Origin: a virus | Strand: one strand, 5' to 3' | DNA length: 64,000 bases | IMG/VR virus record: IMGVR_UViG_3300042893_000684 | Span: 40,427-104,426 of that record | In this document: positions 7,629 through 64,000 of the stretch, one piece after another | How positions within the stretch are numbered: position 1 is the first letter of the stretch | Layout of the letters: the number at the start of each line of letters is the position of its first letter | Translations under genes and position numbers: made by a program | The notes under the pieces: model-generated | Told to the model about the DNA's origin: nothing | The model's input: only the letters and a program-made list of their open reading frames with translations | Databases searched by the model: none

Positions 7629-7961
7629 ATGGCAACAACAGTATACGATGTTGAAGAAATTCAACTACAAAATGGCGCAACAGTTAAGCTCAAGCCTTTA
7701 ACAATTAAAGAGCTACGTGAGTTTATGAAGGTCATTCAAAGAACACAAGAAGTAACATCAGAAGATGAAACACTAACAATCCTTATTGAGGCCTGTGGAG
7801 TAGCACTAAAAAAGCAGCTTCCAGATCTTGTAGCAGACAAAGACGCATTTGAAGACACACTTGACGTTCCAACCATCAATCGCATTCTAGAAGTATGCGG
7901 AGGGATTAAGATGGACGACCCAAACCTACTAGCGGCAGCGGTTCTGGCTGGTCAGAACTAG
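7629..7961 (+). CDS. Tail assembly chaperone (G)
   Basis: Between tail tube and tape measure genes. Confidence 0.75.
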   Translation: MATTVYDVEEIQLQNGATVKLKPLTIKELREFMKVIQRTQEVTSEDETLTILIEACGVALKKQLPDLVADKDAFEDTLDVPTINRILEVCGGIKMDDPNLLAAAVLAGQN

Positions 7962-8290
7962 ATCTAGCCGCTTTAGAGGGGGAAGTATTTCTTCTAGGTA
8001 ATTGGAAAAATTACGAAGAACTAGAAGATAATCTTTCAATGCCAGAGATGGTCCAGACTTTTAAGTCAATGCAAAAAACGGAATCAGAAAAAAGGAAATT
8101 CCTAGCTTCGATTCAAGGTGTTGATTTAGATGAAAGCAGTAATAATGAGGAGGGATCATCCTTCGAAGATGTCAGAAGAAGAGCACTTGGTATAACCACA
8201 TCAGCAGATGATGTTGTTTCATTACAAGGTGGTCTTGCAGCAGAAGCTGGCTTTGGCATTAACGCAGGATTAGGATACCGAATAGAGTAA
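7919..8290 (+). CDS. Tail assembly chaperone T segment reached by -1 frameshift (G-T fusion)
   Basis: Slippery C CCA AAC at 7919-7925 in G frame; -1 frame open 7910-8290. Confidence 0.75.
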   Translation, partial: PKPTSGSGSGWSELDLAALEGEVFLLGNWKNYEELEDNLSMPEMVQTFKSMQKTESEKRKFLASIQGVDLDESSNNEEGSSFEDVRRRALGITTSADDVVSLQGGLAAEAGFGINAGLGYRIE

Positions 8291-8299
8291 CATATACAT

Positions 8300-11200
8300 A
8301 TGGCAGATAATTTAATCACCACCAATATTACCGCCAACGCAGACTTCACGAGTTTAAGAACTCAGCTTGCTGCGGTTACTGCCCAACTCGTAAAATTACA
8401 AGAAACAACGGCGGGAACTAACGCCAAACTAGCAAATCAAATTGCTGTAATGAATAAGTCCTTCGCAGAAACTATGCGATCAACGGGACAGTTTTCATCA
8501 CACTTTGTATCGCTTACATCAGACGTAGAAAAATTTGGTAGGAACCTAGATAGAGGAAGACTTAAACTAGGGGAATACTACAACGCCTGGAGTGGGCATA
8601 CAAAGAAAACAAGCAGCCTGATTAGAGACCTGGCCAAGCAGCAGGTAATGCTAGAGAATGCAATCATTCAGCCTATCGGCAAAAACGCACAAGGCCTAAT
8701 GCAATACAATGTTATGGTTGCAAAGGGCCTTGATGAAATAAAGAACAAGACGGCAATTGCAAGACAAGAGCTATCTATCATGAATAAGGTAATGCTCGAT
8801 GGATCTAATCAGCTTATCAATTGGGGTAAGAACACCCAGTGGGCTGGCCGTCAGTTAACAGTAGGACTAACAGTTCCTCTTGCAGCATTTGGAATGGCTG
8901 CACAAAAAGCATTTAGAGAAGCAGATCAAGAGCTTGTAAGACTTACAAAGGTTTACGGCGGACTAAGTGCAACATCATCTTCAGAGCTAGCAAAAGTAAG
9001 AAAAGATGTTTCCGAAACAGCAAGAGAAATTGCTGGAGCATACGGAATTGCATACAAAGAAACTATTGCATTAGCAGCTGACCTTGCTGCAACAGGACAA
9101 GAAGGCGGAAACCTTCTAGAAGCTACAAGACAGACAAGCAGACTTTCAATCCTTGGTGAAGTAGACAGACAAGAAGCAATGAAGGCAACTCTTGCTATTC
9201 AAAATGCATTTAAATCAAGTACAGATGAATTAACTCAATCTATTGACTTTCTTAACGCTGTTGAAAACCAGACATCCACTTCTCTACAAGATTTAGTTGA
9301 AGCAATCCCTAAAGCAGGCCCTGTTGTAAAGTCTTTAGGTGGAGATGTAAAAGATTTAGCATTGTATTTAACTGCAATGAAAGAAGGCGGAGTAAACGCA
9401 TCAGAAGGTGCTAACGCAATTAAGTCAGCAATGGCATCTCTTATCAACCCAACAAAGGTTGCAAAGGAAATGTTTTTTGGCTTTGGTATAGATATAGATA
9501 AGATTGTAACATCTAATGCGGGAAATTTAACTGAAACAATTACAGACCTTCAAGCAGCTTTAGACAGACTAGATCCACTAAGCAAGTCAAGAGCAATTGA
9601 ACAGTTGTTTGGTAAGTTCCAGTATGCAAGAATGTCAGCCCTATTTGAAAACCTAGGTAAAGAAGGATCTCAAACTCTTCAGGTAATGGATTTAATGAAA
9701 GCAAGCGCTACAGATCTTGCAAATATCTCTGCTCGAGAATTAACTATGATGACAGAGTCCGCTTCAGGACAATTTAAAAGAGCATGGGCTTCAGTCCAAG
9801 CAGACCTTGCTTCAGTAGGAGAACAATTTTTAAGAATTAGCACAAAGGTTTTAAATGTAGTAGATGGGATCATTAAGTTTTTCCAAGGACTTCCAGGTCC
9901 AGTTAAAACATTCCTTAACGCTCTTGGTGGACTAACAGCATTTGCTGGACCACTAATTATGTTAACTGGTGTTATGGCCAACTTTATTGGTTATGTTACA
10001 AAGGGAATATTCTCTTTAAGACAAATGGCTACAGGAGGACATGGGTTTAAGCTCCTTACTCCAGAAATATTAGCGGCAGATGCAGCAGCAAAAGGTCTTG
10101 CTACATCATTCTATTCAGATACAGAAGCAACAGTTGTATTAACAAATGCAGTAAATACTCTTGCAGCATCATTTGATAATCTTCAGGTAGCAGCATCTAC
10201 AGCGCAAGTTGCAGTGCAACCAAGCATCTCAACAGTTGCAGGCGGAGTAATTGCAGCGGGAACTCCAGGCGGAACGCCAAGATATGTTGATAAAAATAAT
10301 CCATTAATTGGAGATTCATACTCAAGAGATATGTCTCACATGATTCCTGCTCAAACACAACAGGCGGGGACAATATTTGGAACAGTTCCAGGAGCAGGAC
10401 CAGTAAACGTTAGAATTGGTAAAAACCCTCAAGCATATATGAACGCAGATCTTCCAAAGATTCCAGGTGTTACATCTGTAAACGGAACATCGACTGGTAT
10501 AGTTGCTCAAGAGGCAGCAAAGTGGCATGCAATGACAGCGGCAATTGCAATGCAATCAGAAGCAGAACTTAAAGTATTAAAGGCAGAGGTAAATGCTACA
10601 GGAACAATTACATCAAGTCTATCTAATTCTTATCAAGCCTTGCTTCCAGAATTTTCAGAAATTACAAGCATGGCTGCACAAGAAACTGCTTTAATCGTTA
10701 AGCAGCTACAGCAAAGCAAAATAACAGCAGACGAAGCAAGAATAAAAGTAATTCAATTAAATGCAACAGTTGAAGCAATGCTTGCTGAGACAGCTCAAAA
10801 GATTGCAGCTGGACAAGGAAGATCTGTAAACTTAACAACAGTTCCATTAACATCTCAACCTGTAGTAGACCCAGTAACTGGTAAATCAAATATGAAAGAA
10901 ATGTTTCATAAGGGTTCTACAAAAACATTAGTAGATAAAATTGCTAGAGCGCTAGGCGGAGTTAGAACTTCAGGTGCAGGATATAACATTGAAACAACAA
11001 AGCCTAAGTTTAATAAAGGCGGAATAGTTCCAGGAACTGGTAACACAGACACCTATCATACAATGGCCGAGCCCGAATCATTTGTAATTAATAAAGCTGC
11101 AACACAAAGAAACATGCCTACAATTAGCAAACTTATTGGTGGCACTCCAACATTTAGAAACACTGGAGGAATGGTTCCAGTAGTTTTAACTCCTGGAGAA

Positions 11201-14200
11201 GCAGTAATTCCAGCAAAAATTGCTAAGCGTAATCCAGAACTAATGTTGCAATTAAATGGTGGCCCAGGTAATACAACTGGTATGGGAAGACATCAAGGCG
11301 GAGGAGTTCACCCACACCCTCATGCAGGAAAGCCTATGACAGATGCTCAATACAGAAGAGCTCTTAAAATGTATTATGAATTTATTAACGATCCAAACTA
11401 TGAAGCCAATGTTCGTGCAAGATTTATTGCACTAGATGCTTCAGAGTATTTGGGAGTTGCCCCACAGATAGGAACTAAAAAAGCTATTGAAATAGCTACT
11501 GCTAATTTTGATGCTGCTAAGGACCTTAATGGATCTCCCGAAGACTGGATTAAAACTAGAACAGCACAGCTTGCTGCTTTTGACGAAAAATATTCTATGG
11601 GAGACAAAAGATTAGTAAAAGAAGGAAGAAGCGCAACGGCTTCTGGTTTAACTAGCGATAACTTTTTAAATAGAAATATGAACAGGGTTTTAAGATCAAT
11701 GAGCAGAAACCCATTATTTGCAGAAGCTCATGAAGATTTAAAGTCAATACCTAGAGCAACTGGTAAAATACAAGGCGGCGGAGGAAGATTAGTTGAAACT
11801 GCTAGAGGCCACGCATTTAGAAGATCTTTAATAGCACAACTAGGTGGAGTTGGCTCAAGAGGATTTGCAGGATTTGCTGCTATTATGCCTGCAGCATTTA
11901 ATACAATTGCTGCACAACTTCAGGGCAAAAATTTTCAACCAGATGTAATTCATTTAAAGAGGGCAAGTGCAATTGCTGACTTTGAAGAAATGGTAAGAAA
12001 ATCTGGAGTCCCTGGAAGCGTAGACGATGTAATACAAGCATTACAGTATGATACAAGATTTGTAGCTGCATCAGACAAGAAACCACGAGTTGCTCCTCCA
12101 TCACCAAAACAAAAAACTGCACTCAACATGTTTTTGCAAGCAATCTCTGCAGGAAAAGCTTGGATTCCAATTCGTGGAAAACTTGCTCTTGCAGGAGCGG
12201 TTAAATTAAATAAGGGTGGACAAGTACCAGGAAAGTTTGCACAAAGATTGTTTGGCGGCGGTAAAGCGTTGTTCTTAGGAATGCCAAGATCTATTAAGCA
12301 GGTTGAAGCCCAGAGAGCCGCAAAGGTTGCTATGGAAAAAGCAAGTCAAGCAGTTAAAGACTCTAGATTTAGCAAGACCCCAGTAACTGATTATGACGCT
12401 ATGCTAGAGCCAACATCAGGAAGAAGTTTCCCAGTATCTGGAATTGGTGGAGTTTATAGCAAGAACGGGGAAAAGGTTTTTGTTAAGCCAGTACTAGATG
12501 AAAAAGCAGCGCTTGCTGAGATAAGAGCAACTGAAATTGCTCGTGATGTTCACGGACTACAAACACCTAATCAAAGAGTTGTTGTAATGAGAGACCCAAC
12601 TGACAGAAGAGGATCTAGAACACTACTAGCTTTAGAGTCTAAGTACAATCCTGCTATAGCAAATCAAGATGGTAAATTTACAGAAGATCAATACTTTAGA
12701 CAGTTAGTTGCATCATCATTACGTGGCGACAAAGATTTAGGCAGGGGTAACCTTTCTGGGAACATACTTGCCGATGTAGGTCCAGCTGGGGTATTTTCAA
12801 CAGCCTCTGGACCAAGAGATTATTCTGCAACAATGCCTTCATTTAAACAACAAGCAATGATCAACTTGCTTGGAGTAAAAGGAAGCAGTACAAAGAAATT
12901 CTTTGCTGAAGCAACTTCAGATATTCCAAGAGGTATGACACCTGATCAATACAATGATCGCATGCTGCAAGAAATTGAATCTGCTCTCCCAAAGCTAAAA
13001 CAAACAATAGGTAGATTTGATTTAAACACAGAAGAAAAAGTTATTTACAATGCAATGATCACAAGACTATCTGATGCAAGAAGACAAACTTACAGAGATT
13101 TGCATGGAGTTCATTCATCAGTAACAATGTCTCCAGAAAAAACAATGACTCCAGCAGCAATTGCCAAAATGCTTGCAGCAGATGAATTGAAGCGCAGACA
13201 AAAGGGTCACTCTGTAAGCCTATCTGATAATGCATTTAAGACACCAGAAAATGGATTCAATATTGGCGGATTAATTGGAAACGTTCTTAAGGGTAAAGCA
13301 ATGCATAGAATTGGTGCAGGATTTGGCCCAACTGGAGCACCTAAGCCAAGTATGTATGAGTCAGCTCCATGGGGCGTGAACTCTCTATCTATTGAAATGG
13401 CCGACAAGCTATTTGCAAACACAGGTTTAAGAAAGCATACTCAAAAATTATTCTATGACAAGTTTGCGGCAGCACTAGCAAAAGAAAAACCTTACGGATA
13501 TGTAAAGATGCCAGATGGTAAATTAAAGAACGGACTCGAGCCAGACGTGCTAGACTCTGTAATAAGATCAGCCGCTTCAGATCTTGTTGGAGACAGAAAC
13601 ATAATTAAACAACTTTCTCCAATTGATAAAGATATTTTGCGAAACAAATATTTAAATTGGGATTCTAAAAAAGATACTCCGCTTACAGAATCTTTAAAGA
13701 AAATTATATTTGGTTTAGAAAAAAGAGAAATGGGCGGACCAGTTAACGCAGGTCAACCATACGTTGTGGGAGAAAAAGGACCAGAGCTATTTGTACCTAG
13801 AAATTCAGGAGGCATTGTTCCAAACGGATACATGAAGGGCGGAAACATTGCAATGCTTGGAGCCTCACTAGCACCAATGCTAATTGCGAGCAAGATTACT
13901 AATCCTTTACTTCAAACAATAATGCAGACGCTTTCATTTATCATACCTCAAATGATGATGACGGCAATGATGCAGACAAAAGCTGAAGGCGCACAAGGAA
14001 GAGTCGGTGGACTTATGTCTAAGATTCCAGCTTCTGCAAAAACTCCTATATTCTCTACAGCAAGAGGGACAAAAGTTGCTGGTGAAATGTTGGAAGATGG
14101 AACATACGCCAAGGGCGGAAGAATGCTCAATAGATACGGCGCAGCTCTTCAGAATTCTGCCAAGAGCGGGAGCGCAGTAACAAGAACCCTGGGAAGAATT

Positions 14201-16606
14201 GGAATGGGTCTTACAAGATTAAATGTAGGACTTGCTGTAGCAACAGGAGCTTTTATTCTTATCAATAAAAGAATAAGGGATCACAACGAACATTTAAGAG
14301 TTGGGGTAACACAATACGGACTAACAGAAGAAGCTGCCAAAAAGGCGGGACTTAAGTTTACTGATTACAACTCAAAGCTTGCAGATACTGTTAAAAACAT
14401 AGAAGCAATACGAGAAAGAAATCAGTTCCTTTATGAAAGCATGCAAGATGCTGGACTTCCTATATCCATGACAATTGAAGAGTATAAGAAGCTTAAGAAG
14501 GAAGTTAAGGAAGTATATACTGATCAAATTAAATTAATTAATCAGTCTAAAGAAAGTGAACTTCCACAAGTAGCAATAGACATTAAGACTGCTCTAATGG
14601 CTGCTGGGTTATCAGCAGATGAAGCAAGCAAGAAGATATTTACAATGTTTAAGCTTTCTGAAAAGGGAGAAAAGGCTGGTGCATTTACTGTAGGTAATCG
14701 TGCATTTAGAAATATTAAAACAGGACAAGATGCAGCCGAGGCTGCAATAAACACTTATACTACTGCCTCAGATGGTAAAGAGAAAGCACAGGCAGTAAAT
14801 ACAGGTCTAACTGCTATCGATGCAGGAATCATTGATATGATTGAGCAAAGTAAAAAAGCTGCTAGAGAAGACAAGAGTGGAAATACAAAAGTATTAACTC
14901 AGTATCAAGCCCAAGAAGCAATGCTTCAAAAACTAAATAAGCTAGAATCTTCTAAAGCTGTTCTTACTGCAAAAACTAGAGCGGAAATGATTAAGCAGAA
15001 TCCAGAACTTAAAAAGATTATTAATCCTATGGATACAATAGTTAGCTTATTTGAAAAGATGAATCTTGCAGCAAAGGGATTTACTGGAGATCTTTCAAAG
15101 TTAGGCGCTGAGGCTGTATCTACACTATCAAAAGTTGCAGATTCCATATCAGAAGCAACCGTTGCTGCGAACAAAGAGGGTCTATTAAAACAACAGTACA
15201 TAGATTTAAAGAAGCTAACAGATCAACAAAAGGCATTAATGCAAGCGGCCAAAGGACAAACTGCTCAGCAACAAATAAACACTAGAGAGCAGCTAAAGGG
15301 TTTGCAAAAGCAAATAGATGCTAATAATAAACTTGCAGAGTCAAGACTAAAAGCATTAGATGCAGCAAAGCAAGAGGGCGATATTGCAAGACAAATTGCA
15401 AAAGCACAAGCAGCATACGAAGCAGCTTTAGCAACAGGCAATACTGCTGCAGCACAACAAGCAAGCTTAGATATTCAAGGTCTGCAATCAGATCAGCAAT
15501 ACAACTCTCAAAAGAAAGCAATTGAAGATGCTCTTAAGCTAGCCAATGCTCCTCTTGAGGCTAAGATAAAATTAATTAATGACGGACAACAAAAGATGTC
15601 AGACAATGCATCAATTGCTGCAGAAAAATTGGGCTCATTAAATGCAAGGATTGATAAGCAAAAACAAAAGATTGATGATGTTAATCAAGCAATGGTCACC
15701 TTAGCACTAAATGCAGCTGCTGCAGGAAAAAGTATAGAGGATTATATTAAGTTTGGAACTGATGAAGACCCAAATGCTGGTAGAGAGGCTGCTGCAGGCC
15801 TTGTTGGAGCAGTAAGAACAGCAAAGCCTGGAACAGTTCCTGAATTTAAACAACCAACTCATCCAAAGGGTGTTAAAACTCCAATTGATGTAGGTACCCA
15901 AGCCCTGGGAATAATGGGCGGGGTAGAAGGAGCTATTACAAAAGGATTAGCCTCAAAGGGTATTCAAATGGGCAGCGGAGATATTATTATTAATGGAAAG
16001 AAGATGGATGTTGGCCAATCAAATGCTACTGCTAAGATTAGTTCTGTTCCTACAACTTTAGGCGTAACCGCTGGAGCCTATGCAGGATCTACAATTATTC
16101 ATCCATCTACACTTATGGCAGCAGGAGCATCTCAAATATCTGATGGCAAACGAGGCTCTACTTGGGTTGGTGTTGAGTTTGTAGATAAAAATGGTAAAAA
16201 GTGGAAGGTAACTTCTGATGCAGGGAGAGCTGGTCTTAACGTTCAAGCAGTAAAAGCTGGTTACGGAACAATGAAGCTTAATCCAAATGTTCCTACTATT
16301 GTCGGAGACCGTGGACCAGAAATGGCATTTGGCGGAATGGTTATTCCTAATATGGCTAAGGTACCATATGCTTCACCTAGATACGATATTAAGCAAGCAG
16401 CAAAAATGTTTGAACCAATGCGTGATTCAGGGGTAGGACAAGGTGTAATTAATTATACACAACATATTCATGCCTCTCCAGGAATGAATGAGGATCAATT
16501 AATAAGTAAAGCAAAGGTTGCAGCATATGAATTCTTGCAGGCCAATATAAAAACTAATGCTAAAATGAAGGGCAACCCAATGAATGTAGGTATTAAAAAC
16601 ACATGA
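8300..16606 (+). CDS. Tape measure protein (2768 aa) with inserted cargo domains incl. HipA/PI3K-like kinase
   Basis: N-terminal TP901-type helical TMP region; follows chaperones; kinase motifs at aa 1381-1492. Confidence 0.9.
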   Translation: MADNLITTNITANADFTSLRTQLAAVTAQLVKLQETTAGTNAKLANQIAVMNKSFAETMRSTGQFSSHFVSLTSDVEKFGRNLDRGRLKLGEYYNAWSGHTKKTSSLIRDLAKQQVMLENAIIQPIGKNAQGLMQYNVMVAKGLDEIKNKTAIARQELSIMNKVMLDGSNQLINWGKNTQWAGRQLTVGLTVPLAAFGMAAQKAFREADQELVRLTKVYGGLSATSSSELAKVRKDVSETAREIAGAYGIAYKETIALAADLAATGQEGGNLLEATRQTSRLSILGEVDRQEAMKATLAIQNAFKSSTDELTQSIDFLNAVENQTSTSLQDLVEAIPKAGPVVKSLGGDVKDLALYLTAMKEGGVNASEGANAIKSAMASLINPTKVAKEMFFGFGIDIDKIVTSNAGNLTETITDLQAALDRLDPLSKSRAIEQLFGKFQYARMSALFENLGKEGSQTLQVMDLMKASATDLANISARELTMMTESASGQFKRAWASVQADLASVGEQFLRISTKVLNVVDGIIKFFQGLPGPVKTFLNALGGLTAFAGPLIMLTGVMANFIGYVTKGIFSLRQMATGGHGFKLLTPEILAADAAAKGLATSFYSDTEATVVLTNAVNTLAASFDNLQVAASTAQVAVQPSISTVAGGVIAAGTPGGTPRYVDKNNPLIGDSYSRDMSHMIPAQTQQAGTIFGTVPGAGPVNVRIGKNPQAYMNADLPKIPGVTSVNGTSTGIVAQEAAKWHAMTAAIAMQSEAELKVLKAEVNATGTITSSLSNSYQALLPEFSEITSMAAQETALIVKQLQQSKITADEARIKVIQLNATVEAMLAETAQKIAAGQGRSVNLTTVPLTSQPVVDPVTGKSNMKEMFHKGSTKTLVDKIARALGGVRTSGAGYNIETTKPKFNKGGIVPGTGNTDTYHTMAEPESFVINKAATQRNMPTISKLIGGTPTFRNTGGMVPVVLTPGEAVIPAKIAKRNPELMLQLNGGPGNTTGMGRHQGGGVHPHPHAGKPMTDAQYRRALKMYYEFINDPNYEANVRARFIALDASEYLGVAPQIGTKKAIEIATANFDAAKDLNGSPEDWIKTRTAQLAAFDEKYSMGDKRLVKEGRSATASGLTSDNFLNRNMNRVLRSMSRNPLFAEAHEDLKSIPRATGKIQGGGGRLVETARGHAFRRSLIAQLGGVGSRGFAGFAAIMPAAFNTIAAQLQGKNFQPDVIHLKRASAIADFEEMVRKSGVPGSVDDVIQALQYDTRFVAASDKKPRVAPPSPKQKTALNMFLQAISAGKAWIPIRGKLALAGAVKLNKGGQVPGKFAQRLFGGGKALFLGMPRSIKQVEAQRAAKVAMEKASQAVKDSRFSKTPVTDYDAMLEPTSGRSFPVSGIGGVYSKNGEKVFVKPVLDEKAALAEIRATEIARDVHGLQTPNQRVVVMRDPTDRRGSRTLLALESKYNPAIANQDGKFTEDQYFRQLVASSLRGDKDLGRGNLSGNILADVGPAGVFSTASGPRDYSATMPSFKQQAMINLLGVKGSSTKKFFAEATSDIPRGMTPDQYNDRMLQEIESALPKLKQTIGRFDLNTEEKVIYNAMITRLSDARRQTYRDLHGVHSSVTMSPEKTMTPAAIAKMLAADELKRRQKGHSVSLSDNAFKTPENGFNIGGLIGNVLKGKAMHRIGAGFGPTGAPKPSMYESAPWGVNSLSIEMADKLFANTGLRKHTQKLFYDKFAAALAKEKPYGYVKMPDGKLKNGLEPDVLDSVIRSAASDLVGDRNIIKQLSPIDKDILRNKYLNWDSKKDTPLTESLKKIIFGLEKREMGGPVNAGQPYVVGEKGPELFVPRNSGGIVPNGYMKGGNIAMLGASLAPMLIASKITNPLLQTIMQTLSFIIPQMMMTAMMQTKAEGAQGRVGGLMSKIPASAKTPIFSTARGTKVAGEMLEDGTYAKGGRMLNRYGAALQNSAKSGSAVTRTLGRIGMGLTRLNVGLAVATGAFILINKRIRDHNEHLRVGVTQYGLTEEAAKKAGLKFTDYNSKLADTVKNIEAIRERNQFLYESMQDAGLPISMTIEEYKKLKKEVKEVYTDQIKLINQSKESELPQVAIDIKTALMAAGLSADEASKKIFTMFKLSEKGEKAGAFTVGNRAFRNIKTGQDAAEAAINTYTTASDGKEKAQAVNTGLTAIDAGIIDMIEQSKKAAREDKSGNTKVLTQYQAQEAMLQKLNKLESSKAVLTAKTRAEMIKQNPELKKIINPMDTIVSLFEKMNLAAKGFTGDLSKLGAEAVSTLSKVADSISEATVAANKEGLLKQQYIDLKKLTDQQKALMQAAKGQTAQQQINTREQLKGLQKQIDANNKLAESRLKALDAAKQEGDIARQIAKAQAAYEAALATGNTAAAQQASLDIQGLQSDQQYNSQKKAIEDALKLANAPLEAKIKLINDGQQKMSDNASIAAEKLGSLNARIDKQKQKIDDVNQAMVTLALNAAAAGKSIEDYIKFGTDEDPNAGREAAAGLVGAVRTAKPGTVPEFKQPTHPKGVKTPIDVGTQALGIMGGVEGAITKGLASKGIQMGSGDIIINGKKMDVGQSNATAKISSVPTTLGVTAGAYAGSTIIHPSTLMAAGASQISDGKRGSTWVGVEFVDKNGKKWKVTSDAGRAGLNVQAVKAGYGTMKLNPNVPTIVGDRGPEMAFGGMVIPNMAKVPYASPRYDIKQAAKMFEPMRDSGVGQGVINYTQHIHASPGMNEDQLISKAKVAAYEFLQANIKTNAKMKGNPMNVGIKNT

Positions 16607-20847: not shown

Positions 20848-21793
20848 AATAAGCTTAGTTGGAGAATATATCTTTTACGAAGACGGCAAAGAGATATGCC
20901 GTAATAAAAACCTAATAACTAAATTTGGTAAAAGATATTTAACACAGTATCTGGCTGGCCAATCAAATACAAATTTAAAAGATATTGCAATTGGTATAGG
21001 TTCCACTGCGGCATCAGTAAATGACACACAACTGGGATTTGAATTTTATAGATCTCCAGTAACAATGAGTAGCATTGACATACAAACTAGCTCAGTAACG
21101 GGAGTTAGCACATATGGTGTAGTTCACAAGACAACAATACCAGTAGATGTTGTAGGAGTTATTAATGAATTAGGTCTTTTCCCAACTGTATCTTTGTCAA
21201 GCACAGACTACGCAAGTAATTCTATTTCTACTTTTGAAGATAATCAAAGCTGGGTAGATTCAGGTGGGCTGTACCCTACTGTATTAACAACACCAACTCC
21301 TAAAATTGGAACTTATTATTTGTCTATGAGTGCATCGGCCTCTGGAGTAAAACAATATTTTAACAATTTTAATATAGACGTATCTGGATACAGCGCACTA
21401 GATAGCCTAACAATTGCATATCGTCAATCTGATTTAAACTTAGATTACGTATTTGTAAGAATGTATGACTCAAACAATAACTACTATGAGATTAGATATG
21501 CAGGAGACGTATCAACAGGAGACAAGATTAAATCATTAACTTTAAACAATCTTTACAGCAGCGGCTACGGATCTGGCCTTCCAGATCAGACTTCTATTGT
21601 TAAAATTGGAGTAGGCGTAAAAGCAAAATCATCGGGAGCAACAACAGTTTTGTTTGATGGATTAAGAATTAATGACGAAGATGCATTTAGAACAGACTAC
21701 GGTCTTATTAGTAGATCGGTTTTAACTACTCCTATTGTAAAGACCTTTGGAAAACAAATGGTTATTGAATATAGAATTGGGTTAGATTTTTAA
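20837..21793 (+). CDS. Minor tail/baseplate-like protein
   Basis: N.IT..G, IAIG.G...D..L..E..R, E.GLF motifs. Confidence 0.55.
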   Translation: MDNRISLVGEYIFYEDGKEICRNKNLITKFGKRYLTQYLAGQSNTNLKDIAIGIGSTAASVNDTQLGFEFYRSPVTMSSIDIQTSSVTGVSTYGVVHKTTIPVDVVGVINELGLFPTVSLSSTDYASNSISTFEDNQSWVDSGGLYPTVLTTPTPKIGTYYLSMSASASGVKQYFNNFNIDVSGYSALDSLTIAYRQSDLNLDYVFVRMYDSNNNYYEIRYAGDVSTGDKIKSLTLNNLYSSGYGSGLPDQTSIVKIGVGVKAKSSGATTVLFDGLRINDEDAFRTDYGLISRSVLTTPIVKTFGKQMVIEYRIGLDF

Positions 21794-24700
21794 TGGGTGC
21801 TTACGATAGAGATGAAGTTGGTTATAGATTACCACCTGATTTAGAAATAACACCTACAGCAGCTGCTGCCTCTGCTGCCGTAGGTTCAAAAGATTCCTAT
21901 ACAAAAAAAATAAAGATTCCTCTTATAAAAAATAAAGAATATAGATTTTTCTTTACTTACTTGCATGAAGACCCAGAAACAAAAGAAATAAAAGAAAGCG
22001 ACAGGTCTCCCGTATGGAAAGAAACTTTTACTATTCCAAATTTAACTAAGGCTGTAAAAAATTTAACATTAACTCCAGGATCACAATCTTACGGAGTTAA
22101 GTTTGATCTTGACCCTTTAAGTGAACAAGAAGATGTCGTTATATTTGAAAGCCTTACCAGTAATTTTGCTACACAAACTATTGTTTATACAGGAACATCT
22201 ACTAACGTTTCAATTCTTACAACAGGGCCAAACGCATTTGCGCCAAGATGGGTGAAGGTTAGATCCAGAGATAAATGGGACGACTTAAATATATCAGAAG
22301 CCACTGCTGGACCAGTAACACCTTTTAGTGCAGATGTTGATACAACATATACTGTTGAAAACCCAGCTAGTTCTTCTGCATCCGCTTCTATTGATCCTAA
22401 AGATTTAAGCGGATTTAGTCTTGTTTCAACAATTAGCTGGGCGCAATCTACAAATGTTAAAACGGCGGGATATGCAATAAGATGGTCAACAGATAATCCA
22501 GCAACAGTAACAAATCCTTTATGGGAATACGCATCAGTAAGCGGAATAACAACAACCTCTTTTACCGCAACAGGATTAATTCCAAACACAACATATTATT
22601 ATCAAGTTGCATCAACAACACCATACGATGTCGTAAGTTGGACAGGTGCTGCAAGTGGAACATTTATTGCTTCAGATGCAGATGGAACAGCGGCAGGTGC
22701 ATTAGCAAGACTTAAATCTTTTATAGCAATAGGCGGGGCATCGCAAGATCTATTTAAAATAGGAACAGGCATATCTCAAAGTATTAATTTAAATACAGAT
22801 CCGCTTGTAAGCCCAACATTAACTGCGGGAACCTATCATGGAATTATATTAAATAAATCAACTACCAACGTAGGTAATAACTTTTGGCTTACCACTGGTC
22901 AGTTTAGAGTTGGAAACCCAACAGAGTTTATGTACTGGAATGGAACAAACCTATATCTAACTGGAAATGTAAATGCTACAGGCGGCAAGTTTACAGGTAA
23001 TGTCCAGCTAGCGATCCCAGCTGGGGCAACTACAAGTGGTACTCTTTTTGCAGGCGCTAATCCAACATCGGGGGCAAGAGTAAGATTTAGTAGCGAGGGT
23101 ATATTTGCATATGATGCTACAAGCACGGACAATGCAACGGGTCAAACATTTTCTTTAGTTCAATCAACAGGTAGATTAAATGCCAATTTAGGTACAGTTG
23201 GCGGATGGACACTTGCAACAACAGGATTCTCATCAAGCAATACTAAAATTGAAAATGATGGAAACATCACGCTAGGAAATCAAGTAGGATCAATCTATCC
23301 AATAGTCAGACTTAGCGCAACCGATGATTTTAGATTGTGGGTTGGAAGCAACAGCTCTTCAACTGCTAAGTTTAGAGTTTCAAAAGAAGGTATTCTGTAT
23401 GCTGAAGGAGCAGTAATAGGTCTAGGAGCAGGATCTACAATTGATGGATACGCAACAACAAGCTCTTTAAATAATTACACTCTTACAACTACTACGACAG
23501 CAATTAATAGCAGGCTGCAAACCGTTGAAGGTGCTTATGTTACCAATACAACACTTAATACTAATATTGCTACAAAAAATGCTATCTTTGTTCAAGACGG
23601 TCAGCCTACGGCTACAAAAGTTGGAGATGTTTGGATAGATACTGATGAAGGAAATATCCTTAAGACTTGGACTGGGTCCACCTGGACTACCAGAACAAAT
23701 TCAACATATGCTACAACAACAGCTTTAAATACAAAATTAGAAGCTGGGGGCTATGCAATTTCAACTGCTAGTAATCAAATTACAAATATTACATCTAATG
23801 GAATTTTTATAACACCAGGAACATTTAAGATATCAAATACAAATGAAACGGCACCTACTACTGGGTCATATGTTTTATTAAACTCAGCAGGACTAACAGC
23901 CTACGATGGAACAAAAACAACTTTTGCAATATCATCATCTGGCAGCGCTTCCTTTTCTGGAAATCTAAGTGCAGCAGGTGGTACATTTGAAGGAAGATTA
24001 TTTGTAAACAATGACACAGGATACATAGATACAGCAGGAACTAAATCAGTAAATGGAATAGGAGTAACAAGTCTTGTAGTAAAGGCTTTAGGATTCAGAT
24101 CTACGGATGACTCTGGCTGGACAAGTACTTGCTACCCATGGACCGAAGGTCTATTTTCTTTAGGAAGCACTCAATATTCTTGGTATAGGTTATATATGGA
24201 AGATGACGTATATTTTGCTAACGGAACAACTTATAAAATTGAACAAAATGGCGATGCCTTTCTGAATGGATATGCAGTTTCAGGAGGTTTTGGTGTATAT
24301 AGTCACTGGGCTCCAAGATCTGATAATACTTATGACCTTGGAGGATGGTCTTTATCAAGCACTGGAATTCAGCAAAATAAAAGATGGAGACAGATTTATT
24401 CAAATAATTCAACAATTACAACATCTGACAGTAGATTAAAAACTGATATTTCTGATTCAGAGCTAGGACTAAACTTTATAAATAAACTACGTCCAGTTAC
24501 ATACAAGTGGATAGAAGGGTCTAAGGAACCAGTTCTTGTAGATAAAGAAGTAAAGCACATAGGCATAGATGGCGTATCAGTTGAAAAAACAGATATCGTA
24601 AAAACCCAAAAAATTAGTGGGCAAGATGAAGACGGAAACGACATATATGAAACAGTATCTATTCCAGGAAAAAGAAGACACGCTGGTTTTCTAGCTCAAG

Positions 24701-24894
24701 AAGTAAAGCAAGTACTAGATGAGCTTGAAGTCGAAGATTTTGGCGGCTGGGTATCAGATAATATTGAGGATCCAGAAGCAATACAAAGTCTAAGATACGA
24801 GCAATTTGTAGCGCCTTTAACAAAGGCTGTACAAGAACTATCGGATATGGTAGAATCATTACAACAAGAAATAAACATACTGAAGGGTATATAA
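21793..24894 (+). CDS. Tail fibre/receptor-binding protein with FN3-like domain and C-terminal intramolecular chaperone (S74-like)
   Basis: GLIPNTTYYYQV; TSDSRLKTDI...LRPVTYKW...GFLAQEV...L.KAVQEL. Confidence 0.8.
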   Translation: MGAYDRDEVGYRLPPDLEITPTAAAASAAVGSKDSYTKKIKIPLIKNKEYRFFFTYLHEDPETKEIKESDRSPVWKETFTIPNLTKAVKNLTLTPGSQSYGVKFDLDPLSEQEDVVIFESLTSNFATQTIVYTGTSTNVSILTTGPNAFAPRWVKVRSRDKWDDLNISEATAGPVTPFSADVDTTYTVENPASSSASASIDPKDLSGFSLVSTISWAQSTNVKTAGYAIRWSTDNPATVTNPLWEYASVSGITTTSFTATGLIPNTTYYYQVASTTPYDVVSWTGAASGTFIASDADGTAAGALARLKSFIAIGGASQDLFKIGTGISQSINLNTDPLVSPTLTAGTYHGIILNKSTTNVGNNFWLTTGQFRVGNPTEFMYWNGTNLYLTGNVNATGGKFTGNVQLAIPAGATTSGTLFAGANPTSGARVRFSSEGIFAYDATSTDNATGQTFSLVQSTGRLNANLGTVGGWTLATTGFSSSNTKIENDGNITLGNQVGSIYPIVRLSATDDFRLWVGSNSSSTAKFRVSKEGILYAEGAVIGLGAGSTIDGYATTSSLNNYTLTTTTTAINSRLQTVEGAYVTNTTLNTNIATKNAIFVQDGQPTATKVGDVWIDTDEGNILKTWTGSTWTTRTNSTYATTTALNTKLEAGGYAISTASNQITNITSNGIFITPGTFKISNTNETAPTTGSYVLLNSAGLTAYDGTKTTFAISSSGSASFSGNLSAAGGTFEGRLFVNNDTGYIDTAGTKSVNGIGVTSLVVKALGFRSTDDSGWTSTCYPWTEGLFSLGSTQYSWYRLYMEDDVYFANGTTYKIEQNGDAFLNGYAVSGGFGVYSHWAPRSDNTYDLGGWSLSSTGIQQNKRWRQIYSNNSTITTSDSRLKTDISDSELGLNFINKLRPVTYKWIEGSKEPVLVDKEVKHIGIDGVSVEKTDIVKTQKISGQDEDGNDIYETVSIPGKRRHAGFLAQEVKQVLDELEVEDFGGWVSDNIEDPEAIQSLRYEQFVAPLTKAVQELSDMVESLQQEINILKGI

Positions 24895-61992: not shown

Positions 61993-62230
61993 CAGATTCA
62001 CCAATAGCGATATATACATATACCCTAGCGTAGAAGGACATATCGAATGTGCTGGATGTTTTCTAAACATATCTCCAGATGAACATACTATATTTCAGTC
62101 AACTAAGATATATAATGATGAGACATTATTGATGCATATACTCCAACACAAGATCTCAGGTCATAATATGCCAGATAGCTTGGCTCAAGATATATTGGCT
62201 GATCCAGACAGATATGGATCCATATCCTAG
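61982..62230 (+). CDS. Hypothetical protein
   Basis: MAY.RF..SD.Y, C..C, H...H...GH. Confidence 0.55.
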   Translation: MAYSRFTNSDIYIYPSVEGHIECAGCFLNISPDEHTIFQSTKIYNDETLLMHILQHKISGHNMPDSLAQDILADPDRYGSIS

Positions 62231-62439
62231 TATCCCCCCGCCCATTATATGCTCTCATATAGCCTCCTAGACCCCTTATAAATGGAGTAAAGTGGAGCAT
62301 AGTGGAGAATAAATACTATAGATACTATATCAATTACTATACTTATACTTAGTTAGATATACCTATGTAATTGAGCATACCATTATCATAACCGTAATGT
62401 CAATAGCGACAATTCGGACATATACTCACATGTGCATAT

Positions 62440-62700
62440 TTTCAGGGATTTGTCAATACCCTTCGTAAATGGCATATTTGGCCCACTTTGTCAATAGATT
62501 TTCATAGAAAAATTTTGACAAATTCTGGCCTATTCTGCACATATTCTATTAGATTTAGTATACATTCTATATCGATCTATATATATTATATTAGATTTGT
62601 TATAACTTTTCAGGGATTTTTATAAGCTCGTCGTAAATAGAAAAATTTGCCCACATTTCAGGGATTCTAGATCATGTGTCGTAAATAGAAAATTTGGCCC
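62440..62700. repeat. Three 45-bp repeats TTTCAGGGATT-N12-TCGTAAA-N11-GCCC (fourth at 63423-63467)
   Basis: Copies at 62440-62484, 62608-62652, 62656-62700. Confidence 0.85.
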
Positions 62701-62714
62701 TCATGCCCACACAC

Positions 62715-62750
62715 AAAAAATCCACAGGATGTGGATAACCCTGTGGATAA
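62715..62750 (-). terminator. Terminator for leftward genes containing DnaA-box sequences
   Basis: TCCACAGG/CCTGTGGA stem plus T6 on minus strand; TGTGGATAA at 62730 and 62742. Confidence 0.65.
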
Positions 62751-62766
62751 TTTGGCCTAGATTAGT

Positions 62767-63147
62767 TTATACTTGGTCAAATGGATTCTTATCTTCATCT
62801 GTATAACCAAAGACTCTTGGTTCTACTTTGACCTCCCGCTTTATATTATATGTGGTAGGTTTAGGTAATTTTAGATTAGATATAACATTGACTTCCTGAT
62901 ATGCTTTGATACATTCATTTAGTTCATTGGCAAGAAGCAGACCTTCTGACGAAGTTCCTCTTACTTTTAGCAGTTCATATACTTTGTCTAGTTCGCTAAT
63001 GACAGATACCAACATCTCAACAATTCTATCAACTGTATATACTGGCTGGTCTGCCAAATATCTACCGAAAATAGTAGGGTTGAACCAATGGTCATCTGTT
63101 AGATTAACTAGTGCTTCTGCTACTTTGATTTCTTGTGTCTTACTCAT
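62767..63147 (-). CDS. Hypothetical protein
   Basis: SD GAAAGG; minus-strand TTGACC-17-TATAAT promoter. Confidence 0.65.
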   Translation of the reverse strand: MSKTQEIKVAEALVNLTDDHWFNPTIFGRYLADQPVYTVDRIVEMLVSVISELDKVYELLKVRGTSSEGLLLANELNECIKAYQEVNVISNLKLPKPTTYNIKREVKVEPRVFGYTDEDKNPFDQV

Positions 63148-63228
63148 AGTCCGCCTTTCTAACCTATCATTATATCAAAAATAAGAAACGGGGTCAAGGA
63201 CCAACGAAGCCCTAACCCCGTCCCTGGT

Positions 63229-63381
63229 TTACTTAGCCTTGTTTGTAGCTGGCTGCGGATCTGAAAATGTAATGCCCTTGTTGATAGCTTCCTGGATAGC
63301 TACCTTAGCAGCTCCTGAGAAGCGACCACGTACACCTACTGTGATGCCTTGTGTCTTTAGATATTCTCGCTTTGTTGTCAT
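63229..63381 (-). CDS. 50-aa Lsr2 DNA-binding-domain-like peptide (not in ORF track)
   Basis: MTTKREYLKTQGITVGVRGRFSGAAKVAI...; SD AGAAAGGA; promoter TTTACA-17-TATAAT. Confidence 0.65.
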   Translation of the reverse strand: MTTKREYLKTQGITVGVRGRFSGAAKVAIQEAINKGITFSDPQPATNKAK

Positions 63382-63467
63382 GATGATCCTTTCTAGATCG
63401 GTTTGCTTTAATTATATCAACTATTCACGGCTTTGTAAATAGCTTTCGTAAACTGAAAAACTTGCCC

Positions 63468-63605
63468 TTAGTTAGAAACTTGTTCTAACCTATCTCTAAT
63501 TAGATTAGATACAATGTTATGTGCTTCGTCTACCTCATGTAGAGATCCAGACCATAACAAAGCTTGGGCCTTACTTAACTGATCATTGATGTATTGATCA
63601 CTCAT
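63468..63605 (-). CDS. 45-aa hypothetical protein (not in ORF track)
   Basis: MSDQYINDQLSKAQALLW...; overlaps stop of upstream gene. Confidence 0.5.
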   Translation of the reverse strand: MSDQYINDQLSKAQALLWSGSLHEVDEAHNIVSNLIRDRLEQVSN

Positions 63606-63912
63606 CTTCATCTTCGTCTTCTTCCCTGTCGTCATTGAGGTCAATCATATATTCTCGACTCAACATCCATTGCATTACATCTTCGTAATGCTGTTCGGCA
63701 CCATACTCTAATGTAAAGCCCATACCAGCCTCCACAGCCTCACAGAGGTGTGCCCACATCTCGTCCTCAGTTGCCACCACTTCCCAGTCTGTGTCGCTTC
63801 TAAAGTTGTTAATGGTGGACCAGGTCCACAACCAAACCAGGGATAATCCAAGGTCGGTGGTATCTAGAATCTTTAAACATTCGTTGAGTTTATCTTTATC
63901 GGCTGGCTTCAT
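63598..63912 (-). CDS. Hypothetical acidic protein
   Basis: SD AAGGGAG. Confidence 0.65.
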   Translation of the reverse strand: MKPADKDKLNECLKILDTTDLGLSLVWLWTWSTINNFRSDTDWEVVATEDEMWAHLCEAVEAGMGFTLEYGAEQHYEDVMQWMLSREYMIDLNDDREEDEDEDE

Positions 63913-64000
63913 ATGCTAACTCCCTTTCATTCCATTCCGCTAATGTCTTGACAGTAAAGTCTTTCCCTAAATTATAACAGTAGAGCACAGCATCCGTCAA

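Follow-up and report, generated by a model that had tools for sequence, protein, structure and literature searches.

The window analyzed here, the last 64 kb of the 104,426-bp IMG/VR virus record IMGVR_UViG_3300042893_000684, encodes a giant tape measure protein (TMP), P0001, in which a middle array of compact modules is joined by short Gly-Gly junctions. We show that related phages replace, lose or move these modules, that the junctions are conserved, and that the exchange points fall on the junctions. Because related phages exchange modules exactly at Gly-Gly junctions, the tail probably takes ready-made proteins into the host, and we lean toward reading P0001 as a modular-cargo TMP, that is, an array of independent modules set at exchange junctions, carried in the tail and delivered.

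By its sequence, P0001 is a tape measure protein. Pfam family PF10145 matches aa 239-438 (E 1e-26), which places the protein among TMPs of the TP901/PhageMin_Tail type, while nine PHROG TMP families cover aa 18-860 (phrog_10030, E 3e-116). Annotated TMPs of Streptomyces phages share ~32% identity with it across aa 6-671. Along the genome, the portal, S78-type protease, capsid and tail tube genes are followed by two small open reading frames (ORFs), the TMP, the minor tail proteins and the fibre; the P0001 gene is the longest of the tail module and lies between the tube/chaperone-like genes and the distal tail genes. Hydropathy identifies hydrophobic segments at aa 537-566, within the N-terminal TMP region, and at aa 1970-1988, within the C-terminal region, and the alignment of relatives to the latter region spans aa ~1970-2470. 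An independent metagenome contig (L002) has the same TMP architecture with DNA that is 95% identical, and thus, P0001 is not an assembly chimera.

Relatives were gathered by searching aa 881-1960 against 1.84 billion representative proteins, which gave 6,694 matches (154 below 1e-30), nearly all of them proteins of 2,000-4,400 residues with a TMP N terminus. A scan of IMG/VR by the alignment of the kinase-like module described below gave 249 relatives, of which 80 loci were retained, and the comparison set overall comprised ~230 relatives. Among 50,697 deposited phage records, megablast with the TMP gene returned no match, and tblastn with the middle region returned nothing but a short GEKGPE motif (part of a junction that we term J2), which is present in many TMPs.

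Module exchange is seen at the DNA level in the first slot of the array (slot 1), which is occupied by insert 1. Two loci, L003 and L004, are 96.4% identical to the window over 7.3 kb, with the similarity ending at nt 11290 (aa 997, the start of HQGGG) and resuming with 93-95% identity at nt 12215, which corresponds to aa 1306 in the GG of LNKGG; nothing aligns between these two points. The same left and right ends of the slot recur in L007, L011, L024, L031 and L047, with the left end at nt 11274-11305 in L003, L004, L007, L011, L024 and L047 and the right resumption at nt 12208-12215. When all loci are pooled, 53 high-scoring segment pairs (HSPs) of DNA stop at aa 990-1004, while 55 start at aa 1300-1324. 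At single-base resolution, shared sequence to the left of the slot ends with an island formed by the two Gly codons, and to the right, it begins again with N-x-G-G. A further exchange is seen against L002 (95% identical before the junction, 91% after), where similarity ends at nt 13825, past NSGGIVPN, and is back at nt 14202; in total, 44 HSPs end at aa 1840-1849.

At the protein level, modules are lost or moved at the same boxes. The kinase module is missing from P0019, which joins an LNKGG-type box straight to an FNIGG-type box, while insert 3 is missing from P0015, P0018 and L065, which join FNxGG straight to REMGG. Insert 3 also occurs without the kinase module (P0019, P0021, P0095 and P0146). 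Across more than 100 giant TMPs, the start of the kinase module varies, lying at ~residue 700, 1000, 1300, 1840 or 2180. Across these comparisons, the inserts vary while the junctions between them persist. The first-pass annotation of this DNA had proposed that the GG boxes are cleavage and/or recombination junctions for swappable cassettes, and the borders of DNA similarity and the abutting boxes of relatives agree with the recombination part of this proposal. The TMPs of the close relatives L022, L031, L033, L034 and L041 (4,004-4,268 aa) carry 1,200-1,500 residues of extra modules past the C-terminal region of the window protein; therefore, the module array can grow at its far end too. We also considered natural gene fission at the boxes, as the genes of L060 and L030 appear to be split there. 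This candidate was rejected: both breaks are 1-nt indels (L060:11340-11520 and L030:8880-9140), one of them in a homopolymer, and the L060 break falls in a GAAAAGG run exactly at the REMGG box. Both probably stem from errors in assembly, not from fission of the gene or a programmed frameshift.

The nine GG motifs listed in the first-pass annotation all lie at the residues it gave, namely FNKGG (aa 904), RNTGG (953), HQGGG (998), LNKGG (1303), LFGGG (1317), FNIGG (1653), REMGG (1809), YMKGG (1844) and YAKGG (1936), and its nucleotide interval of 11009-14119 corresponds exactly to aa 904-1940. Motif counts in aa 881-1960 exceed those in 5000 shuffles: GG occurs 21 times (shuffle mean 11.3, P 0.002), N.GG 5 times (0.54, P 0.0002) and GG.[VIL] 9 times (2.0, P 0.0002). 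A count of the bracketed 5-mer pattern is an unfair test because the pattern was defined after the motifs had been seen. As had been claimed, the motifs bracket three non-coil segments, each of which AlphaFold2, given alignments of relatives as input, models as compact: the predicted local distance difference test (pLDDT) score is 76-97 at aa ~1010-1300, 85-97 at aa ~1333-1632 and 60-84 at aa ~1700-1805. The boxes themselves lie within stretches of pLDDT <50 and are predicted to be disordered. At the borders of slot 1, G1000 and G1001 of HQGGG are invariant across 23 divergent sequences, and N1304, G1306 and G1307 of LNKGG are invariant too.

In distant relatives, the kinase module is flanked by a conserved unit of ~50 aa, with the consensus hydrophobic-[A/N]-x-G-G, a Gly-rich turn, (T)D(T)xPAMLTPGExVI, and a helix ending L-x-x-I/L-N. 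We refer to this unit as the hook. Two hook units (aa 903-993), modelled by AlphaFold as a beta-hairpin and two helices, precede insert 1 in P0001, an order of anchoring hook before cargo like that of T5 pb2, while the boxes at aa 1303, 1653, 1844 and 1936 look, from their sequences, like hook units cut down to their first residues. The GG box of the first-pass annotation is best taken as the leading edge or remnant of a ~50-aa TMP repeat rather than as a free-standing signal. When compared to the PDB, the hook profile (alignment A6) matches Douge gp16 twice, at aa 963-1013 and 1410-1461 (E 7e-27), and JBD30 gp46 at aa 1018-1065 (E 1e-10); it matches neither the T5 pb2 hook nor lambda gpH, and the likeness to the T5 hook comes from the JBD30 paper. 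No family in Pfam-A covers the unit.

The hook is found in at least 7,713 proteins at E<=1e-3, mostly TMPs and many with SLT, glucosaminidase, lysozyme or LysM domains, with two to four units per protein that are mostly 150-400 residues apart. Hooks adjoin enzyme domains in four of the five proteins where Pfam placed one (P0154, P0156, P0159 and P0179). Of the 122 TMPs that carry the kinase module, 70 have a hook whose end lies no more than 80 aa upstream of it, and 48 have one that begins no more than 25 aa downstream. The ending G[FY][NA]xGG after the kinase module is also found in distant lineages with no other common flank. Relatives have either Asn or Ala at the position preceding x-GG.

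A different motif, GE(K/R)GPE...GGxVxPN, is widespread and appears twice in P0001, once mid-protein (J2) and once near the C terminus. P0001 may have arisen by extension or fusion past an older C terminus. A GE(R/K)GPE motif like that of J2 is also found in a solved chain named with the Pfam family Tape_meas_lam_C, at an E of 0.25 that makes it a lead only.

The claim that one insert is a kinase is borne out for insert 2 at the level of fold and motif. With its predicted model as a Foldseek query, kinases accounted for 50/50 among the matches listed. VIA-align aligned this model with CtkA over 199 residues (Z 10.6, root-mean-square deviation 4.3 Å) and gave Z scores of 9.6 for PI3K-delta, 9.5 for MavQ, 9.1 for PI4KII-alpha and 9.0 for both HipA and HipT. 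The predicted model has a bilobal kinase fold with an ATP-binding Lys, a catalytic Asp...Asn pair and a metal-binding Asp, along with a Gly-rich loop, GIGGVY, at aa 1381-1386. K1396 is found in 36/36 sequences covering the position, and D1477, D1479, N1484 and D1492 are found in 42/42 aligned sequences, an invariance that holds down to 35% identity. None of the curated kinase families HipA_C, PI3_PI4_kinase, Pkinase and Kinase-PolyVal matches in Pfam at E<=10, and a profile of the 42 sequences returned chance matches only, and no kinase, from PDB sequences. We read insert 2 as an active atypical kinase. No free-standing member of the family was found, all 35 short matches being fragments at contig ends, and its link to TMPs is thus obligate. 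There was likewise no credible cellular copy among 185,579 species genomes, where the module matched only two contigs of metagenome-assembled genomes (MAGs). These contigs, L082 (CAZCDW010000001.1) and L083 (CAYVOK010000043.1), are labelled Bifidobacterium and Acidimicrobiaceae, with GC contents around the matches of 43% and 38.5%, respectively. They are probably phage contigs binned with the MAGs and provide a weak host hint at best.

Insert 1 is replaced in phages whose flanking DNA is 93-96% identical. Identity inside the slot is below detection while the flanks are 96% identical, which argues that the slot-1 alleles are exchanged and not drifting. In relatives, the slot contains mostly very divergent alleles of the insert-1 family, along with a few other families. 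Single-linkage clustering had suggested eight unrelated cassette families, a division that was rejected when alignment showed most of them to be divergent alleles of one family. The cassette array of the first-pass annotation stands as regards exchange at GG junctions, but slot 1 mostly contains variants of one domain rather than unrelated cargos. The family keeps R1041, D1046, H1171, G1188, A1193, N1201 and D1215 (window 11420-11944) below 25% identity, and this set of conserved residues looks like an active site. The hypervariability of the slot suggests direct contact with a fast-changing host factor. Neither the PDB (best Foldseek E 0.2) nor BFVD (best E 0.04) contains a matching fold, and VIA-align against 48,161 chains gave a best Z of 4.0. 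A Fic fold, indicated by weak Foldseek rows, was rejected because the family has no contiguous HxFx[DE]GNGRxxR motif. The ESM Atlas neighbour is a cluster in which 18% of members have Phage_P22_gp16 (score 0.86), which is below our counting level and unconfirmed by Pfam.

Insert 3, which was modelled together with the kinase module, has no Pfam match at E<=10. Its ESM Atlas neighbour has LPD38 (score 0.89) with few shared features, again below counting level and unconfirmed by Pfam. With the same threshold, Pfam returned nothing usable for any of the inserts and junctions. In wider relatives, scattered Pfam domains are found, including HAD phosphatase, CHAP, NlpC/P60, LysM and cytidylyltransferase-like (nucleotidyltransferase-like) domains. 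The coordinates of all modules and junctions are given in Table 1.

Table 1. Modules, junctions and other features of the P0001 gene (nucleotide positions in the window).
Feature	Position (nt)	Strand	Evidence or remark
TMP gene, 2768 aa (P0001)	8300..16606	+	single ORF, PF10145, PHROG families, tail-module context
Canonical N-terminal TMP region, aa 1-880	8300..10939	+	identity to Streptomyces phage TMPs; hydropathy
Hook unit 1, aa 903-950, FNKGG first	11006..11149	+	match to unit hidden Markov model (HMM); aligned in A6
Hook unit 2, aa 944-993, RNTGG first, LNGG last	11129..11278	+	unit HMM, E 8e-9
HQGGG box, left border of slot 1	11291..11305	+	DNA similarity ends here
Insert 1, aa 1003-1302, hypervariable, mostly helical domain	11306..12205	+	pLDDT 76-97; replaced in relatives
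LNKGG...LFGGG junction, aa 1303-1321, right border of slot 1	12206..12262	+	DNA similarity resumes; pLDDT <50
Kinase-like module (insert 2), aa 1322-1652	12263..13255	+	AlphaFold2 pLDDT 85-97, Foldseek, VIA, invariant residues
Putative catalytic loop RGDKDLGRGN (aa 1475-1484) and ADVG (aa 1491-1494)	12722..12781	+	invariant 42/42
FNIGG box between kinase module and insert 3	13256..13270	+	box joins in relatives
Insert 3, aa 1658-1808, small helical domain	13271..13723	+	pLDDT 60-84; absent from some relatives
J2 junction, aa 1809-1842 (REMGG, GEKGPELFVP, NSGGIVPN)	13724..13825	+	phrog_30701, phrog_1538; alignment A7
Third exchangeable cassette, aa 1843-1967 (YMKGG, Met-rich hydrophobic stretch, YAKGG)	13826..14200	+	L002 comparison, 44 HSPs
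C-terminal region, aa 1968-2768	14201..16603	+	translation, hydropathy
Second GDRGPE...GGMVIPN motif near C terminus, aa 2669-2685	16304..16354	+	aligned with J2 in A7

In the modular-cargo reading that we favor, the array between the N- and C-terminal regions would consist of a hypervariable helical domain, a kinase-like domain, a small helical domain and a hydrophobic cassette, joined by short conserved and probably flexible junctions that would be the hook repeat or its first residues (hydrophobic-[N/A]-x-G-G-x-V/I). By analogy with T5, lambda, TM4 and P23-45, the modules would lie inside the tail lumen as part of the TMP and in a non-native state, since the ~4 nm lumen is too narrow for a 330-aa domain in its folded form. 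They would exit with the TMP when the tip opens during infection, then refold, and would act ahead of phage gene expression. The kinase would have to reach the cytoplasm because it needs ATP. Cutting at or beside the junctions may occur, as it does in T5 and lambda, although this reading does not require it.

Several observations weigh against this reading. The kinase call depends on a modelled fold for which the scores are middling (Z 9-10.6, Foldseek E 1e-3), and the module has no sequence family match in Pfam or the PDB. No function was assigned to inserts 1 and 3 by fold or sequence searches, the P0001 phage and every kinase-bearing relative are uncultured, and the refolding of a 330-aa enzyme after passage through the tail is a step that we infer. 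Not every breakpoint fits the placement at GG boxes in the first-pass annotation: a protein-level cluster of breakpoints at aa 1070-1089 has none nearby, and the third cassette extends on its right to aa ~1965-1990, 30-50 residues beyond YAKGG. Finally, over the whole divergent family, BLAST endpoints are only 3-4-fold enriched near the boxes. This global enrichment is modest because the endpoints of distant hits are fuzzy, and we regard the DNA borders among close relatives, as read from their alignments, as the better evidence.

The conserved junctions could instead mark a true polyprotein, with the GG boxes serving as protease sites that are cut during assembly or after ejection to free the modules as effectors. 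The invariance of the GG at the borders of a hypervariable slot and the location of the boxes in predicted disordered linkers are consistent with this possibility, as are the comparable sites in the two TMPs for which cutting in particles is known, namely lambda gpH, which is cut in a glycine-rich region, and T5 pb2, which is cut directly after its anchor hook and before its enzyme domain, and the case of JBD30, whose authors proposed a cut right after a hook (aa 1022-1066) that our repeat profile matches. A flexible hinge, however, would equally need a conserved Gly-Gly, and the T5 cut follows Arg rather than GG. Asn-dependent self-cleavage at N-x-G-G was set aside, as many relatives have Ala in place of Asn, and this alternation before x-GG argues against Asn-driven self-cleavage as a route to a polyprotein. 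Moreover, the ten structural-module proteins that we scanned include no GG-specific protease of the adenain, ULP or C39 type, the S78 prohead protease being the only one present. We consider cleavage at the boxes possible but rather unlikely. A more general form of this idea, in which hook/GG junctions are processing sites and giant TMPs are true polyproteins that inject changeable ready-made enzymes before phage genes are read, strikes us as unlikely. If it were true, it would amount to a general, recombination-programmable injection system, here with a kinase and a hypervariable domain directed against a fast-evolving host factor, and the junction repeat would play the role that pre-toxin motifs play in polymorphic toxins.

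Alternatively, the modules may serve the TMP's own job of setting tail length, crossing the envelope and forming the channel, with the kinase-like domain being a binding or structural domain or a pseudo-enzyme. Motifs embedded in the TM4 TMP do count toward tail length, known TMP enzymes are mostly cell-wall hydrolases for entry, the modules sit among hook units and hydrophobic segments, which in T5 anchor the protein and form the channel, and inserts 1 and 3 show no enzyme fold. However, the invariance of all kinase catalytic residues over 42 sequences to 35% identity would be unusual for a pseudo-kinase, and outside the cytoplasm a kinase would lack the ATP that it needs. In addition, modules are lost or swapped in otherwise near-identical TMPs, such that none can be essential for assembly, and we doubt this explanation. 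If the kinase is active, it could also work late in infection in the producing cell, on host or phage proteins, with its location in the TMP reflecting the timing of expression or a gene fusion. The TMP is abundant at that stage, a folded module would be active before being threaded into the tube, and sequence does not distinguish this possibility from delivery; but the lack of a free-standing member makes the TMP link obligate, and hooks flank the module just as they flank the entry enzymes of other TMPs, which leaves late action in the producing cell quite improbable. Least credible is that the GG motifs have no role, being ordinary Gly-rich linkers at which exchange borders fall merely as domain boundaries. 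The boxes are short and variable outside the GG, selection for functional recombinants generally puts the borders of phage mosaics at domain edges, and the global endpoint enrichment is modest. Yet thousands of TMPs contain a defined repeat of which the boxes are the conserved beginning, the identical G[FY][NA]xGG ending follows the kinase module across lineages that share no other flank, and the motif counts are above those of shuffles, so that we give this explanation very little weight.

The length of the TMP gives a prediction for the particle. At ~0.15 nm per residue, P0001 corresponds to a predicted tail of ~415 nm if all 2768 residues count, as compared with ~294 nm when aa 998-1808 are subtracted. 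The record itself is rated 96% complete by CheckV and has a GC content of ~39%. The first-pass annotation had assumed an actinophage, but the host is not shown to be actinobacterial: the GC content is 39%, and cellular matches are limited to the two doubtful MAG contigs. Elsewhere in the window, two small ORFs directly upstream of the TMP gene (7629-7961 and 8039-8290) match phrog_10504 and phrog_10474, have no Pfam match, and occupy the position of a tail assembly chaperone pair. The tail fibre (1033 aa, window 21793-24894) contains an fn3 domain and a C-terminal Peptidase_S74 intramolecular chaperone domain. At window ~62000-64000, the GC skew and AT skew flip sign and ORFs lie on the minus strand, which marks a strand switch at the end of the record.

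TMPs are usually regarded as rulers and channel formers, at times with a cell-wall enzyme. Enzymes in TMPs are already known from TM4, T5 and many phages of Gram-positive hosts, as are the TMP-RNA polymerase of P23-45, Sle1 carriers and polyvalent proteins. As far as the literature that we searched shows, what is new here is a family of atypical kinases that occurs only in TMPs, a slot with hypervariable alleles, and the recognition that a widespread hook repeat marks both module borders and exchange points. Together, these features would indicate a wider use of the TMP, with the tail lumen as a cargo hold whose contents are reshuffled at a conserved junction repeat. The junction also provides a defined place to seek a TMP-processing step, and the TMP-only kinase family is a candidate for the earliest host modification of the infection. 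Alleles of the hypervariable slot may track variation in host defence or receptors, and the junctions look like natural points for engineering cargo into phage tails.

Among known systems, T5 pb2 resembles P0001 in that hydrophobic segments and an anchoring hook come before an enzyme domain. Cleavage of pb2 after R1127 separates the anchoring C terminus from the peptidase domain, and both parts (pb2* and pb2C) remain in the tail (Linares et al. 2023, PMC10038345). On infection, the peptidase is ejected through a lumen ~4 nm wide, and the authors suggest that it may need a refolding step (PMC10038345). The difference lies in the cargo, which in T5 is a single C-terminal, periplasmic metallopeptidase, whereas P0001 has three or four internal modules including the kinase. 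JBD30 gp46 and Douge gp16 (PDB 8rk3 and 8zdo, entries for JBD30/Douge) have the ~50-aa repeat in common with P0001. The JBD30 authors describe aa 1022-1066 as a predicted "hook" comprised of a short beta-hairpin and two helices, a shape that matches the AlphaFold model of P0001 aa 903-993, and propose by analogy with T5 that, once cut at residue 1066, the TMP is held in the baseplate by this hook. In these phages, however, the repeat is unresolved in the maps, is not described as a repeat family or tied to exchange, and is not accompanied by a kinase. In lambda, gpH is processed to gpH* and gpHC within a glycine-rich stretch that lies close to a module border, by a mechanism reported as unknown and with the fragment staying in the particle (PMC12617516). 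Unlike P0001, it has no enzyme cargo and no match to the hook profile, and it is cut only once.

Mycobacteriophage TMPs, such as that of TM4, likewise embed host-acting enzyme motifs, in this case peptidoglycan-hydrolase motifs that assembly does not require and that contribute to tail length (Piuri and Hatfull 2006, PMC1796659). These are small cell-wall enzymes acting outside the membrane, whereas the cargo of P0001 is kinase-like and set in an array with defined junctions. The module itself is similar in predicted fold to CtkA of H. pylori, HipA/HipT, PI3/PI4-kinases and Legionella MavQ and LepB, with a matching Lys, Asp...Asn and metal-binding Asp. It differs from these enzymes in having no detectable sequence relationship to them, in a short catalytic Asn-to-Asp spacing of 8 residues, and in being found inside TMPs only.

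Polyvalent proteins combine many effector-type domains, kinases included, on a single chain that enters together with the DNA; the paper on them, which makes no mention of tape measure proteins, suggests that they vary in a cassette-like way (Iyer et al. 2017, PMC5512222). P0001 is similar in having a kinase-like module and two other compact domains in one TMP, but the signature domains of polyvalent proteins (LPD families, Kinase-PolyVal, MuF and others) have no Pfam match in P0001. Polyvalent kinases also lack the C-lobe, whereas the P0001 module aligns with HipA, CtkA and PI3/4-kinase over ~200 residues. The Sle1-type TMP-like effectors of actinobacterial contractile injection systems consist of a helical carrier with a variable, exchangeable domain and are loaded into the tube (Nagakubo et al. 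2026, PMC13277306). In contrast to P0001, they belong to bacterial nanomachines rather than phages, have one C-terminal domain, and are not described as having a hook-delimited array. Finally, in the Thermus phage P23-45, gp96 is a TMP-fused virion RNA polymerase that transcribes pre-early genes (Chaban et al. 2024, PMC10770324). Although this is a single N-terminal polymerase of unrelated fold for which neither a junction repeat nor cassette exchange has been described, it resembles P0001 as we read it, since this enzyme, though part of a giant TMP, acts on targets in the cytoplasm as soon as infection has begun.

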